Source: a bacterium (lineage in GTDB: Bacteria; UBA8248; JACPRG01; G963555815). Taken from it: DNA of 64,000 nucleotides. The position numbers were made by a program, and so were the translations under genes. This document shows, one piece after another, positions 14,609-45,238 of the stretch. The notes under the pieces were generated by a model. That model was not told where the DNA came from. It was given only the letters and a program-made list of their open reading frames with translations, and searched no databases. Location: positions 736,001 to 800,000 of the forward strand of contig CBDHDG010000007.1 of the NCBI GenBank assembly GCA_965261595.1, in the 5' to 3' direction. Position 1 is the first letter of the stretch, and each line of letters begins with the position of its first letter.

Positions 14609-15234
14609 GAACTCTTCCGCTCGCGCTCGGGGGGGCCGTCTTTCAATTCCTCAGGGGGTGGACCGGCTGGCTTACCGACCCGTACGCGGGCCGGCCGCAA
14701 CAATCGGCCTTTGAGTAAATAACCCGGAAGCACCTCTTCGGCCACCTGATTTTCCTTCGCCGGGTCATCCACGGAAACGACGCCCACGGCCTCATGGACG
14801 TTCGGGTCAAAAGGCCCGCCCGTGCTTTCCACCCGCTCCAGGCCGTGGGCCTGAAGCGTCCCAACCAGCCGGCCGTGAACAAGCCGGACGCCCTCCAGAA
14901 GGACGGCGGCGCCTCCGGACGCTCCGGTCTCAAGAGCCCTGTCCATGTCGTCCAGGACCCCGATCAGCTCCTCCACCAGGCCGCCCAGGGTTTCCTCGGC
15001 CCGCCGGTCCGCCTCCTTGCGGATTCGCTCCCGAAAGGCCTCGTTCTCGGCGCGCTGGTTCTCGACGAACGTCTTCAGCCGCTCTTCGTTTTCCCGGGCG
15101 CGCGCCTCAATCCGCTCGATGTAGGTGGGGAGGACGGACGGCACCTCCGCGTCTCCATCACCCCTTCCCTTCGCCCAGTGTCTCCGGTCAACGACCGAGA
15201 CCTTGGGCCGCTCCTCTTCTTCCTTTTCCGGCAT
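14605..15234 (-). CDS. grpE: Nucleotide exchange factor GrpE
   Basis: [33 protein letters not shown]. Confidence 0.93.
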
Positions 15235-37905: not shown

Positions 37906-38142
37906 CCGGAATCCGTCATGACCCGCATTTTTCAGGACCCGATTGTTTTGCTGTCGCTCACCCCCGCGATTCCGCCCCCCCCTCCCTCTCCCCCCCCGGG
38001 ACTTCTCGCCGGTCATCAGGGGCGAAGCCGGTTTTGCCTCGCCCTCACCGATGAAATCCGGAAAATACCCCGCCGCGCGAATTTCCCCTTGACCCCGTAT
38101 GTCGGTACGGGATTTATATTCAATGTCCGGGGGGATGCGGTG

Positions 38143-40623
38143 ATGACGGAAGCCGAACGGAAGCCGATGGAAAAGCTCAACCTGAAAATCGGCGGGATGC
38201 AGTGCTCCTTCTGCGTCGATAGCATTCACAAGGCCCTCGCCCGCATGAAAGGCGTGGGCGAGGTCGCCGTGAGCCTGTCGCACGAAGAGGCCCTGGTCCG
38301 GTACGACCCGGAGGAGGCGGCGCCCGCCGAGATCGAAGACACCCTGACGAGCATGGGGTACACCGTCCGGGACCCCCGAAAGGTTTTTTCCTTCGAAGAA
38401 GGAGAGGCCGAAGTCCGCCGGCACAGAAACCTGCTTGCGGTGACGGCGGTGTTCATGGCGGCCTCCCTGGGTCTGATGACGCCGATGTGGCTGGGCGTCC
38501 GGCACCCATGGTTCAAGTGGGCGATGCTCGCCCTCGCCCTGGGAATGGTCTTCGGCGTGGGCCGTTCCATCCTGAAGATGGCCTGGGCCGCGCTGCGCCG
38601 GGGCATCCTGAACCAGCACATCCTCATGGAGTTCGGCGCCTTCGGCGGCCTGGCGGGGGGCGCGGTCGGGTTCTTCAAGGCGCCCTGGCCCACGGGAGAC
38701 TTCCTGGGGGCCGCGGTCTTCATCACCGCCTATCACGTCCTCTCGATGTACGTCTCCACGGTGGTCCGGACGAAGAGCTCCCGGGCCATCCGGAAGCTGA
38801 TGGACCTCCGGCCCGCGACGGCCCGCGTCGTGCGCGACGGCAAGGAGGAGGAGACGCCCGTCGAGGAGGTTCGCCCGGGCGACCTCGTGCGCATCCGTCC
38901 CGGCGAAGGCGTCCCCGTGGACGGCGTGGTCGTGGAGGGCCTTTCCGGGGTGGACAACAGTCTCGTGACGGGGGAGTCCATCCCGGTGGAGCGGACCGCC
39001 GGCGATGAGGTCATCGCCGGCTCTGTGAACCAGACCGGAACGCTCCTGGTGAGGGTCACGAAAGTTGGCGAAGAGAGTTTCCTCCAGCGGGTGGCGCGCT
39101 CCATCCAGGAGGCCCGGGCGCTTAAGCCGGGGGTCCTGCAACTGGTCGAGCGCGTCCTGAAATGGTTCGTCCCGGGGGTCCTCATCGCTGCGGGGACGGC
39201 GTTCGCGCTTTGGACCTTCGGGTCCTGGCTGGTGATTGGAGAGCCCAACTTCGGCCGGGCTGTCTTCGCCGCGCTGGCGACGCTGGTGATGGGCTATCCC
39301 TGCGCCCTGGGGATGGCCACGCCCCTGGCGATGATCCGGGGCGGGGGGATAGCGGCCGAGAAGGGTGTCTTGATGCGCTCCGGCGAGGCCTTCCAGGTCT
39401 TCAAGGACGTGCGGAAGGTCGTTCTGGATAAGACCGGCACCCTCACCCGGGGGAGGCCCCGGGTGGTGGATATCGCGGCCGCGGAGGGTTTCCCGGAAGA
39501 ACGCGTCCTGGCCCTGGCGGCGGCGGCCGAGCGCCCTTCGGAGCATCCCCTGGCCCGGGCCATTGTGGAGCGGGCGGCGGCGGCGGGTTATCCGGAGGCC
39601 CGGGATTTCCAGGCCCTGCCCGGACAGGGGATCAAGGCGACGGTGGAGGGCAGACAAGTCCGGGTGGGCAGCCCCCGCTTTCTGGCGGAGGAAGGCGTGG
39701 ACCTGGGCGCGCTCCGGACGCGCGTGGAAGAGATGGAGGGCCGGGGCCAAACCGTCGTCGGGGTGGCCGAGGACGGGCGGGCGGCGGGGATCCTCGCCAT
39801 CGCCGACACCTTGAAAGATGACGCGGCGGAGACGGTCGCCCGAATGAAGGCGGCCGGTCTGGCGCCGGTCATGATCACCGGCGACAACCGGCGGACGGCG
39901 AATGCGGTGGCCGCTCAGGTCGGCATATCGGAGGTCCTGGCCGAAGTGCTCCCCGATCAGAAAGCCGAGCGGGTGCGGGAGCTTCAGCGTCAAGGCCATC
40001 GCGTGGCCATGGTCGGAGACGGCATCAATGACGCGCCCGCCCTCATGCAGTCGGACGTGGGGATCGCCATCGGCGCGGTGACGGACATCGCCATCGAATC
40101 CGCCGATGTCGTCCTCATGGGCGACCGGCTGGGCGGCGCGATGGACGCATACGCCATCGGCAAGAGCAGCTTCCGCAAGACCGTCCAGAACGTCGTCCTG
40201 GCCTTCGCCTTCAACGGCGTCGGCGTCCCGGCGGCGATGACGGGGATCGTCCACCCGGTCATGGCCATGATCGCCATGGCGGCCAGCGTCAGCGCCGTGC
40301 TGTTGAACTCATTCGGCGGGAGGCTTATCCCCCGTGGAGCGGGAAGGAGAGTCGATTCCGGGGCGTTGGCCCTCAGGCCCGCTCCGGCGTCGGCCGGGTC
40401 TTTCGTCTCCGGCGACGCCCGCCTGCTTGCCGTCACCGTGAAAGGCATGCACTGAGGCGGATGCCTCGCGGCCATCGAGCGGGCGCTCGAACCGATCCCC
40501 GGAGTCCACAAGGTGGAGGGAGACGTGAAGACGAAGCGGGTCGAAGTCCTCATCCAAGGGGAGGAGGACGTGGAGGAGGTTTTCCGGGCGTTGGAGCGGA
40601 GCGGGTTTCCGGCGGAGGTCTGA
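38143..40623 (+). CDS. copA: P1B-type heavy-metal (Cu+) ATPase with a C-terminal HMA domain after an in-frame TGA (probable Sec)
   Basis: N-terminal GMQCSFC, TGES, YPCALG, DKTGTLT, SEHP, GDGINDAP; GMH-TGA(40453-40455)-GGC reads on in frame to TGA 40621-40623. Confidence 0.85.
40456..40490 (+). promoter_or_regulatory. Candidate bacterial SECIS element
   Basis: Stem TCGAGC/GCTCGA (40475-40490) with GGGC loop starting 26 nt after the UGA. Confidence 0.55.
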
Positions 40624-40627
40624 AAAG

Positions 40628-41281
40628 ATGTGGGAGGCCGTTCAGTTCGTGGGCGTCCCCCTGGGGTTCGGCCTGATTGGTTTTGTCGAGCCTTGCTCGA
40701 TGGGGGCGAACTTCGTATTTCTCGCTTATCTTCTGGACCGGCCCGCCGCGGAGCGGGTCCGCCACGCCCTCACCTTCGTTCTGATCCGTTCGCTCTTCCT
40801 CGGGCTTCTGGGCGGCGGCGTCGCCTGGGCGGGGGAATCCATCGCGAAGGGCTCTTACCTCTACAGCGCGGGGCTCGGGGGGATCTACATCCTTCTCGGA
40901 CTGGCCGCGCTGGGGGTTCACTTCGGCCTGTTGCGGCTTCCCGCCGGGGACCCGCGGGGCTGGATCGAAAAAAAATCCGGTCTCGCGCTGCCGATGGGGA
41001 TCCTCTTCGGCCTGAGCGCGCCGATTTGCGCGGCCCCCTTGTTTCTGGCCCTTCTGGGGCAGGCGGGCGTGGCGGGCATGGGGAAGGGGTTTCTCTCCCT
41101 CGGCCTTTTCGGGCTCGCCCTGTCGGCGCCGTTCCTGGTCCTCGCGGCCTCGAAGCGGGCCTCGGATCTGCTCTCGCGGGTGGGAAGGCATGCGCCGCGC
41201 ATGACCCTCGTGGCCGGGGTCGTCCTCATCCTGTTGGGCCTTTGGAGCGTCGTCATCGGCTGGAAGGGCCTGCCGGTGTGA
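40628..41281 (+). CDS. CcdA/DsbD_2-family membrane protein (cytochrome c biogenesis-like)
   Basis: GFVEPC and APICAAP Cys motifs, about six TM segments. Confidence 0.8.
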   Translation: MWEAVQFVGVPLGFGLIGFVEPCSMGANFVFLAYLLDRPAAERVRHALTFVLIRSLFLGLLGGGVAWAGESIAKGSYLYSAGLGGIYILLGLAALGVHFGLLRLPAGDPRGWIEKKSGLALPMGILFGLSAPICAAPLFLALLGQAGVAGMGKGFLSLGLFGLALSAPFLVLAASKRASDLLSRVGRHAPRMTLVAGVVLILLGLWSVVIGWKGLPV

Positions 41282-43523: not shown

Positions 43524-43891
43524 GGTCTTTTCTCTCTCGCTCTCCAAAGGCGCGCCAGCGGCCCCGCCCCTTGCGCGGCCTTCGGATGAATCTGTGGTTT
43601 GAGGTCCCCCGCGGTACGCACACCATCCGTCCGCTCTGGACCCATACAGGCTATTTTATCCCATGACGGCGGAAGGTCAACCGGCTGCGGCGTCTCCGAC
43701 GGCCGAAACTGTGCGTGCGCTTGAGCGGGCAACCGATGTTTCCCGGCGATCTTTCCTTTTATCCCGATCCCGACGCCCGCTTGACGCTGCCTGGCCGATT
43801 GGCCAGCATGTTGTGGCCGACGTCGGAGGAAGGCGTCCGCCCCCGTTGAAATCGACTCCCTCGGATGACTTTTCAAGATTCAAGGAGCCTC

Positions 43892-45238
43892 ATGACTGAC
43901 CTGCTGATTCAAAACGGAACGGTTCTCTGCATGGATGCCGGCGGCGAGGTCCTCCCCGGCGGGGCGGTGGCCGTCCGCGACGGGCGGATCGCCGCGGTGG
44001 GAAAACCCGCCGACCTCAAACGGATGGGGTTCGGTGAAGGCCGAACGCTGAACGCCCGGGGGCAGGTGGTGATGCCCGGACTCGTCAACGCCCACGCCCA
44101 CGTGGCGGGGGGCCTCCTCAAGGCCCTGCCGGAGGGGCCCGGCACGCGGGCGGCCATGCAAAGGGCGTCGAGGCTTCTCTTCACCGAAGCCGATCCGGCG
44201 GAGACGGAAGCCCTGGCCCGGGCCTCTTTCCTGGAGGCGTTGAAGAGCGGTGTGACCTGCGTGGGCGTTCTCGACCGGGCCGCGTCGGCCCTCGGGGATG
44301 TGGCGCGGGAATCGGGTCTGCGGGTGGTGCTGGCCGACGCCTTGGCGGAGGCGGACCCGGTTTCCGCCGCTTCGGGGGCCGCGCCCAAGCTGGACGCGTC
44401 GGCCGGGGCGGCGGCGTTGGAGGCGGCGCTCACGCGGATCGAGGGGCTGGACCCGGATGGCGACGGCCGGGTGACGGCCCGCCTGGGCGTCCATTCACCG
44501 GCGGTGTGCTCGGACGAGACCCTGGAATCCGTGGCCCGGGAGGCCGAGGCCCGAAAGCTCGGGCTGCATTTTCACCTCGCGACCTTCGCCGCGGAGACCG
44601 AGACGCTCCGCGCGCGGGCGGGGGGGGACCTGTTCGGATTCCTCCGCAGGCTGGACCTCCTGCGGTCCAACACCCTGGCCGCGGGCGGATGCGCGTTGAA
44701 GGAGGAAGAGATCGGCGGCCTGCGCGAGTCGGCGGCGCAGCTGGCCGTGGCTTCGCGGGCCGACGCCGCCCGGGGCGTTCGCACGCCGGTGGCCGCGTGT
44801 CTTCGCAACAAGGTTCCCCTGGTGTTGGGAACGAACGGCATCGGCCATGACCTCTTCGCCGTCATGCGGGCGTTCATTCTCTCGGCCCGGCTGGATGGGG
44901 AGAGCGGCGGTCTCGTGGGGCCGGCCGAGGCGCTGCGCATGGGCGCCCGGGACGGGGCGAGGGCGCTCGGGCTTCTCGGAAGCGTCGGGTCCATCGAGAT
45001 CGGAAAGAAGGCCGACCTGATTCTGGTCACGCTCGACCCGGCGAAGGCCCCCCTCGTGGAGTCGGACGATCCGGCCGCGGCCGTGTCCGAGGTGTGCGGC
45101 CCCGGCGACGTGACCGACGTGGTGGTGGACGGCGAGGTGCTGATGGAGGGTGGAAAGGTCAAGTCCGTGGATGAGAAGGCGGTCTTGAATGAGGCCCGGA
45201 AGGCCGCCGCGGCGGTCTGGCGGCGGGCGGCCAACTAA
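43892..45238 (+). CDS. Amidohydrolase-family protein (MtaD/TriA-like) with a degenerate active site
   Basis: [28 protein letters not shown]. Confidence 0.8.

Follow-up and report, generated by a model that had tools for sequence, protein, structure and literature searches.

A probable selenocysteine codon in the C-terminal metal-binding domain of a bacterial P1B-type ATPase

Does the gene of a heavy-metal pump end at the first stop codon of its reading frame, or is that codon read as selenocysteine (Sec)? The question is raised by a P1B-type ATPase gene on the forward strand of a 64,000-nucleotide stretch of bacterial DNA (assembly GCA_965261595.1, contig CBDHDG010000007.1, positions 736,001 to 800,000), the whole of which is referred to here as the window. 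The frame runs to ...AVTVKGMH, meets an in-frame TGA at 40453-40455, where the list of open reading frames (ORFs) closes it, and continues as GGCLAAIERALEPIPGVHKVEGDVKTKRVEVLIQGEEDVEEVFRALERSGFPAEV to a second TGA at 40621-40623. Judging from sequence comparison, we consider it highly probable that the TGA at 40453-40455 is a Sec codon. This reading is preferred because the codon is conserved and paired with Cys in homologues, a hairpin downstream of it is conserved, the Sec machinery is present, Sec is heavily used in the genome, independent assemblies agree on the codon, and the encoded domain straddles it. A preliminary description of the locus had placed Sec at the first Cys of the CxxC motif of a C-terminal HMA domain, with a selenocysteine insertion sequence (SECIS) hairpin on its 3' side and Sec machinery in the genome, and all of these elements are supported here.

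The codon and the domain around it

Translated through the TGA, the coding sequence at 38143-40623 would give a protein of 826 residues having Sec as residue 771 and the TGA at 40621-40623 as the true stop. The stretch after the first TGA comprises 55 codons (GGCLAAIERAL...SGFPAEV) and completes an HMA domain. By themselves these 55 residues match Pfam HMA (PF00403) with 34 bits (cut-off 24.8) over profile positions 10-61 of 62; once the residues preceding the TGA are added, the match has 53.5 bits and widens to positions 2-61, and therefore the domain straddles the codon. It lies at 40432-40608, with its metal site GMH-U-GG-C at 40444-40464. The TGA thus stands on the first Cys of GMxCxxC and the same frame runs on to the stop at 40621, just before the next gene with its ATG at 40628, both as the preliminary description had it. 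The C-terminal HMA also matches the CopZ family NF047957 (86.3 bits, cut-off 85), and a sequence comparison with the PDB pairs it with the HMA domains of Cu pumps and chaperones. A separate small gene after the TGA was considered and rejected: the only listed ORF there (40461-40676) is out of frame, and a later in-frame start lacks the metal loop.

Public gene calls all end at the TGA (P0003 at 770 aa; P0004, P0008, and P0012 at 771 aa). The gene would therefore be annotated about 56 codons short in the public calls examined, and protein databases would lack the metal-binding tail both here and in related pumps, in a lineage rich in selenoproteins.

The genomes of relatives were queried with the C-terminal 88 residues of the pump. 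Four other genomes, belonging to three families, gave the best matches. In each case the match was part of an open frame of ATPase length interrupted by a single TGA, which occupied the identical codon in the context (G/S)MH-TGA-xGC. A species-level genome collection and metagenome contigs were scanned with peptide patterns taken from outside the hairpin, and 162 loci, the relatives included and one locus counting as two sites, were classed by the codon at the Sec position. The codon was TGC at 105, TGT at 23 and TGA at 9 (8 distinct sequences); the remainder had no CxxC that could be found (18), an earlier stop (4) or no transmembrane motif (4). Cys (128) or TGA (all 8 distinct Sec forms) is what the preliminary description expected of homologues at this position, and the in-frame UGA occupies the first position of a UxxC motif, aligned with the Cys of those homologues. 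The records of the Sec forms are titled Nitrospinota, Candidatus Tectomicrobia or Nitrospinaceae; Cys forms come from Methylomirabilota, Chloroflexota, Gemmatimonadota, Pseudomonadota, Actinomycetota, several archaea, and others.

Over the C-terminal region the five aligned Sec forms are 55-65% identical to the window sequence, and another (locus L123) is 95% identical. A codon alignment of the Sec forms indicates that the HMA sequence after the TGA is kept at the protein level while synonymous changes accumulate, and no frameshift or second stop after the TGA was found in any of the 8 distinct sequences. In a sample of the window's own phylum, 6 of 51 genomes had a close match (E <= 1e-10), with TGA in all six; a seventh (G012) had a partial match cut by the contig end.

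Another frame with a Sec-like codon was seen in two genomes from the same family as the window. A short ORF resembling HMA and reading GMVCNL-TGA, a CxxU arrangement having Sec at the second Cys, lies on the minus strand of G005 (locus L038, about 1490-1790) and of G002 (locus L040, about 1490-1790), and is a separate candidate selenoprotein.

A conserved hairpin and the selenocysteine machinery

The 3' signal proposed for this codon is a hairpin at 40475-40490, contained in the minimum free energy fold, with stem strands at 40475-40480 and 40485-40490 and the loop GGGC at 40481-40484; a possible lower stem of 3 bp would pair 40469-40471 with 40492-40494. The preliminary description gave it as TCGAGC-GGGC-GCTCGA with its loop 26 nt on, which agrees with the 25 nt that lie between the UGA and the loop, the first loop G being the 26th base after the UGA. 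Bacterial SECIS elements lie 16-37 nt from the UGA. A stem-loop 3' of the UGA with a G in its apical loop, as expected of a bacterial selenoprotein gene, is present here in the form of a 6-7 bp stem and the loop GGGC.

Conservation of the hairpin is pronounced. The sequence (A)UCGAGC-GGGC-GCUCGA(U) is identical in 7 of 7 Sec forms that are long enough, 25 nt after the UGA and with folding energies of -8.1 to -9.2 kcal/mol, so the hairpin conservation that the preliminary description wanted examined was found, with synonymous sites frozen inside the hairpin. Codons +7 to +11 (ATC GAG CGG GCG CTC) are invariant at the nucleotide level across the codon alignment of the Sec forms. When only degenerate codons with an invariant residue are counted, synonymous variation occurs in 0 of 5 inside the hairpin vs. 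11 of 14 outside it. All five hairpin codons are among the 8 invariant of 19, for which the hypergeometric P is about 0.005, an approximate value as the sequences are related. The 124 distinct Cys forms served as a control, the best hairpin of each being sought at the same distances behind the Cys codon. These hairpins averaged -3.5 +/- 3.1 kcal/mol; 8 of the 124 reached -8.1, and 4 of those 8 had a G in the first two loop bases.

How the Sec forms are related to each other was approached with a quick 105-row tree built on the pump core, with the careful search unfinished, in which they split 4 + 4, one group being on a long branch. A single Sec clade was not rejected by the AU (approximately unbiased) test on a 35-row subset (p = 0.114), a group that was named after the tree had been seen. 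The nucleotide-identical hairpin in both tree groups would argue for a common origin of the Sec module.

Can Sec be inserted in this organism? The genome to which the window belongs (6.17 Mb, 7 contigs) has selA (550.5 bits) and selB (389.9 bits) adjacent to each other, selD (329.9 bits, C5:89297-90265), itself with an in-frame TGA at the classic GG-U-GSK site, and a tRNA-Sec (72.1 bits) that ARAGORN calls SeC with the anticodon TCA. All four matches are above curated cut-offs, and with selA, selB, selC (the tRNA-Sec) and selD present, the machinery that the preliminary description said to look for is complete and the organism is able to insert Sec. Among five other genomes with the Sec-form pump, SelB was found in 4 and tRNA-Sec in 4, at least one of the two being found in each; the misses are in metagenome-assembled genomes 90-91% complete, in 230 and 740 contigs. 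On one contig (C154 of G032) a tRNA-Sec gene lies about 14.6 kb from the Sec-form pump (2-94 and 14722-14970), which is probably a coincidence.

Use of Sec in the window's genome was surveyed by a crude scan, neither complete nor unbiased, for TGA codons flanked on either side by coding signal and followed by a hairpin. It yielded 169 candidates, of which 72 had a Cys/Ser/Thr motif beside the TGA, and 20 of these 72 were picked by hand for Pfam analysis. A Pfam domain spans the TGA in 12 of the 20: five CMD/AhpD-like (CxxU), four DsbA-like (UxxC), two AhpC/Redoxin and one OsmC. In three more, two GrdB genes and a GrdB-like one, the TGA falls at the domain end in a UxxC context. The other five (L218, L219, L220, L222, and L221) were rejected as selenoprotein sites; in L221 the tail of a GrdA sequence is joined in frame by the gene that comes next, and this tail hints at a GrdA gene in the window's genome. 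Besides the pump there are, then, 15 selenoprotein genes (loci L203-L217) and selD with an in-frame TGA and a downstream hairpin, and probably further ones beyond those that the crude scan found. In these 15 genes the distance from the UGA to the loop is 16-22 nt, and in 14 of them at least one of the first two loop bases is G. From these predicted genes, Sec decoding appears to be heavily used in this genome. Such use fits the ranking given in the available part of a recent database paper, where three genomes labelled Nitrospinota, Nitrospinaceae or Nitrospinae are among the ten bacteria richest in selenoprotein genes (PMC13326102, 2026).

Alternative readings and the predicted role of the Sec tail

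Several points weigh against a Sec codon at this site. The fold of the single sequence is unremarkable (z = -0.82, with 41 of 200 shuffles folding equally well in this GC-rich DNA) and therefore proves nothing; the support comes from comparison rather than from folding energy. The stem is invariant and hence shows no compensatory covariation, and the encoded peptide AIERAL could account for part of the hairpin conservation. The spacing of 25 nt exceeds the 16-22 nt of the 15 other selenoprotein genes examined in this genome. A scan of 40380-40640 against Rfam (E <= 10) returned no SECIS family and four matches at chance level. Termination at the UGA would leave a complete pump core and so would not be obviously harmful. 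The TGA was verified on assembled contigs, not on raw reads, and RNA run X15 has no contig over 40259-40615 and so does not cover the TGA; its contigs flank the site (39823-40232 and 40623-41034) with several differences and are probably from a relative. Sec insertion itself is deduced from sequence.

What else might the TGA be? Were it a true stop, the pump would end at residue 770 and the HMA stretch would be the decaying remnant of a Cys-form C-terminus after a nonsense mutation. All public gene calls end there, the 770-residue product retains every core pump motif, and the final stop of the gene is also TGA, all of which agree with such a history. A remnant, however, would not retain an open, HMA-scoring frame together with the same TGA in 8 distinct sequences, some of them 55-65% identical, and neither the lack of frameshifts and second stops nor the preserved protein sequence amid synonymous change is what decay would leave; we regard a true stop as most improbable. 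Translation might also pass the UGA without Sec, by a near-cognate tRNA for Trp or Cys or by another recoding signal, with the hairpin only stimulating read-through. The longer spacing of the hairpin relative to the other Sec genes of this genome would suit this explanation, and the identity of the inserted residue is a prediction from sequence comparison. Against it, the aligned residue in 128 homologues is a Cys that serves as a metal ligand, the classic Sec/Cys pairing, Trp in place of a metal ligand would destroy the site, the Sec machinery is complete, and SelB or tRNA-Sec occurs in each of the five other Sec-form genomes. Read-through of this kind is very improbable.

There is, finally, the matter of a sequencing or assembly error, the real codon being TGC or TGT. 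The preliminary description had suggested a check of the reads; carried out on contigs, the check gives TGA in those of runs X1, X4, and X8, from three studies, which cover 40453-40455 with no difference listed. X1 and X8 match the window almost exactly, and its source may be among them. Seven further independent assemblies, of other species, have TGA at the same codon. No support for an error was found at the contig level, the level at which the window was checked, and because the contigs of three studies and seven assemblies from other species all read TGA, an error is very unlikely, with a probability close to negligible.

The Sec codon therefore stays the preferred interpretation, and a mechanism can be outlined from the established bacterial Sec pathway: the hairpin at 40475-40490 would recruit SelB carrying Sec-tRNA(Sec), and the UGA would be decoded. 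That Sec is actually inserted, which metal is bound and what the domain does, we infer. The product would be an 826-residue P1B-type heavy-metal ATPase with a selenolate/thiolate site, GMH-U-GG-C, replacing the usual CxxC, on an HMA domain predicted to hang on a flexible linker of 34 residues behind the last membrane helix. The analogy with metal-binding domains on the cytosolic side of Cu(I) pumps suggests that this C-terminal domain would most likely take up a soft metal, Cu(I) being the probable one, and may regulate the membrane pump or hand the metal over to it. Sec would be expected to give tighter or faster metal binding than Cys.

One further proposal concerns regulation. The UGA could be a selenium-dependent switch between the 826-residue form, with its Sec tail as a sensor or hand-over site, and a functional, differently regulated pump of 770 residues, in which case the C-terminal placement of Sec would be adaptive. 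We consider such a switch unlikely; the idea that selenium supply sets the ratio of the long to the short pump owes its plausibility solely to the complete pump core that the short product retains. If true, the switch would couple selenium status to copper handling, and would do so in a subgroup of pumps with YPC at the membrane metal site (described below) whose one tested look-alike, CopAL6, raised cellular copper according to the available text of its description (PMC11082258). Sec at the very end of the protein means that a failed insertion still leaves a whole pump, and therefore selenium-dependent regulation of metal transport is directly testable. The pump would also add a case of Sec as a metal ligand and not as a redox catalyst.

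The pump, its neighbor and known systems

The start of the gene is most likely the ATG at 38143, rather than that at 37918, because P0003, the public gene call for this sequence, has 770 aa and a terminator-like site was found by pattern scan at 38094-38111, just upstream. In Pfam the read-through product matches E1-E2_ATPase, HAD hydrolase and two HMA stretches, of which the C-terminal one scores best. The N-terminal HMA at 38182-38364 (47 bits, residues 14-74 of the translated 38143-38400) has an ordinary Cys site, GMQCSFC, at 38194-38214. The membrane metal-site motif, GYPCALGMATP at 39292-39324, has YPC replacing the canonical CPC. The linker of 34 residues (40315-40416), which joins the C-terminal HMA to the last membrane helix, is poorly conserved and has indels in the alignment.

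Which metal does the pump carry? It matches the heavy-metal P1B model TIGR01525 with 559.8 bits (cut-off 346.25), so that a P1B core in the sense of TIGR01525/COG2217 is present, and the copper-translocating subfamily TIGR01511 with 465.8 bits (cut-off 397). The match to the CopA equivalog NF007952 is 507.6 bits, far under the cut-off of 1316. The solved structures nearest in sequence belong to Cu(I) pumps, namely A. fulgidus CopA and ATP7B with about 462 bits, ahead of ZntA at 314.5 and a Cd pump at 257.6 bits. Cu(I) pumps of the P1B-1 class canonically have CPC at the membrane site and YN and MxxSS in the last helices. The pump instead has YPC, and N(x)6FN(x)4P and MxxSV in its last helices, and so lacks the motifs of a Cu(I)-exporting P1B-1 ATPase (CopA). 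In the preliminary description it had been called a copper ATPase, CopA. The copper part of that name agrees with TIGR01511 and with the nearest structures, and the CopA part does not stand, with YPC in place of CPC and a match below the NF007952 cut-off. Our inference from sequence is that the metal is copper; the pump probably works like a Cu pump, but is not to be filed as CopA.

YPC was found at the membrane site in 104 of 104 related loci where it is readable (6 Sec-form rows and 98 others). Pumps with YPC, FN, and MxxSV and with an HMA at each end (loci L043-L202) occur in many bacterial and archaeal phyla and, on these motifs, appear to be a distinct and phylogenetically broad subgroup, one that looks little described in the literature. 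This subgroup, with two HMA ends and often a DsbD-like partner, may outweigh the Sec codon in wider interest.

The partner in the window is a gene at 40628-41281 on the same strand, beginning 4 nt after the pump's stop, with no terminator-like site listed between the two by the pattern scan. It encodes a membrane protein of 217 aa, with Cys in EPCS and APICAAP, that resembles the DsbD/CcdA superfamily in an Atlas look-alike search: 26 of 30 matches are with the set DsbD_TM/DsbD_2 (scores 0.96-0.98), an annotation carried by 16-30% of the members of those Atlas clusters. NCBIfam gives a sub-threshold match to an ArsG-family permease (22.1 bits, cut-off 200). In Pfam there is no match better than E = 0.16, and PF02683 and PF13386 are unlisted even at E <= 1, so that neither of the families that define DsbD/CcdA is above threshold. 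The preliminary description's adjacent CcdA-like gene is thus adjacent and alike in the Atlas search, lacks Pfam support, is below threshold in NCBIfam, and is not specific to Sec; the resemblance may serve as a lead only. Of 7 distinct Sec loci whose downstream sequence is readable, 6 have this gene behind the pump. Because it also follows several Cys-form YPC pumps (L143, L144, L128, L162, and L137; 43-48% identity), it would appear to be a recurrent partner of the pump subgroup and not of the Sec site.

Two other genes were noted near such pumps. Directly after the DsbD-like gene that follows one Sec-form pump is a free-standing ORF of 140 aa (L044, 4097-4519, plus strand) that consists of a helix similar to the final membrane helix of the pump, then a linker and a Cys-type HMA. 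It may have arisen by duplication of the pump tail, or be a small metal-binding protein in its own right, anchored in the membrane. In the window, 3 kb downstream of the pump, 43865-45238 on the plus strand encodes an amidohydrolase that matches the model of SsnA, a putative selenium metabolism protein (TIGR03314), with 152 bits, below the cut-off of 455.5. A selenium link of this gene is doubtful because it matches chlorohydrolase/deaminase models better.

Among solved structures the pump is best matched by A. fulgidus CopA (PDB 3j09; 462 bits over residues 8-711), and ATP7B (7xuk) and Legionella CopA (3rfu) are further Cu(I) P1B-1 pumps among the best matches. A. fulgidus CopA has metal-binding domains at both ends. 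The differences from these Cu(I) pumps are YPC, not CPC; N(x)6FN(x)4P, not YN; MxxSV, not MxxSS; and the putative C-terminal Sec.

A closer likeness in layout is CopAL6, a synthetic copA-like gene of environmental origin which, in the available text of its report, is described as having HMA at both ends and a YPC site (PMC11082258). The likeness is one of described layout, a kinship with the pump being conjectural, and the description carries no sign of Sec. CopAL6 made E. coli without copA less resistant to copper, and accumulation of the metal was highest with it, at 534.5 ug/g (PMC11082258), a result unlike that expected of an exporter. By analogy this suggests, as a hint only, that the YPC subgroup handles copper and that its transport direction or regulation may differ from that of CopA.

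The predicted tail, for its part, resembles NF041115 ('UxxU_metal_bind') and other stand-alone HMA selenoproteins, which have the HMA fold with Sec in the metal loop. Proteins of the NF041115 type are small, free-standing and UxxU, whereas the HMA of the pump is fused at the C-terminus and is UxxC; the match of NF041115 to the pump's HMA domains is below the cut-off (83.3 bits vs. 95).

How does the pump relate to the Sec-containing P-type ATPases already in the literature? To judge from the available text, such a cation-transporting ATPase, CHY0860, was first reported in 2005 from Carboxydothermus hydrogenoformans (PMC1287953), and the family recurs in PMC1976440, PMC2398784, PMC5029168, PMC9312934, and PMC13188914; its table row in PMC5029168 reads 25 and 32. 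The listed entries of one BSepDB supplement include no ATPase. So far as these sources describe them, the catalogued proteins are like the pump in having a P1B heavy-metal core, Sec first in UxxC, Cys homologues, and a stem-loop after the UGA. Their published descriptions, in the parts available, give a motif and an example accession (ABB15669.1) and do not state which HMA domain bears the Sec, and we found no published description of a P-type ATPase with Sec in a C-terminal HMA. The window pump differs in that its Sec would be in the C-terminal HMA, with Cys kept in the N-terminal one, and in belonging to the YPC subgroup. By its TIGR01525/COG2217 core and its UxxC motif, the pump is predicted to be a member of the already catalogued selenoprotein family, and its C-terminal Sec in a YPC pump is possibly a variant, if the catalogued members hold their Sec in the N-terminal HMA.

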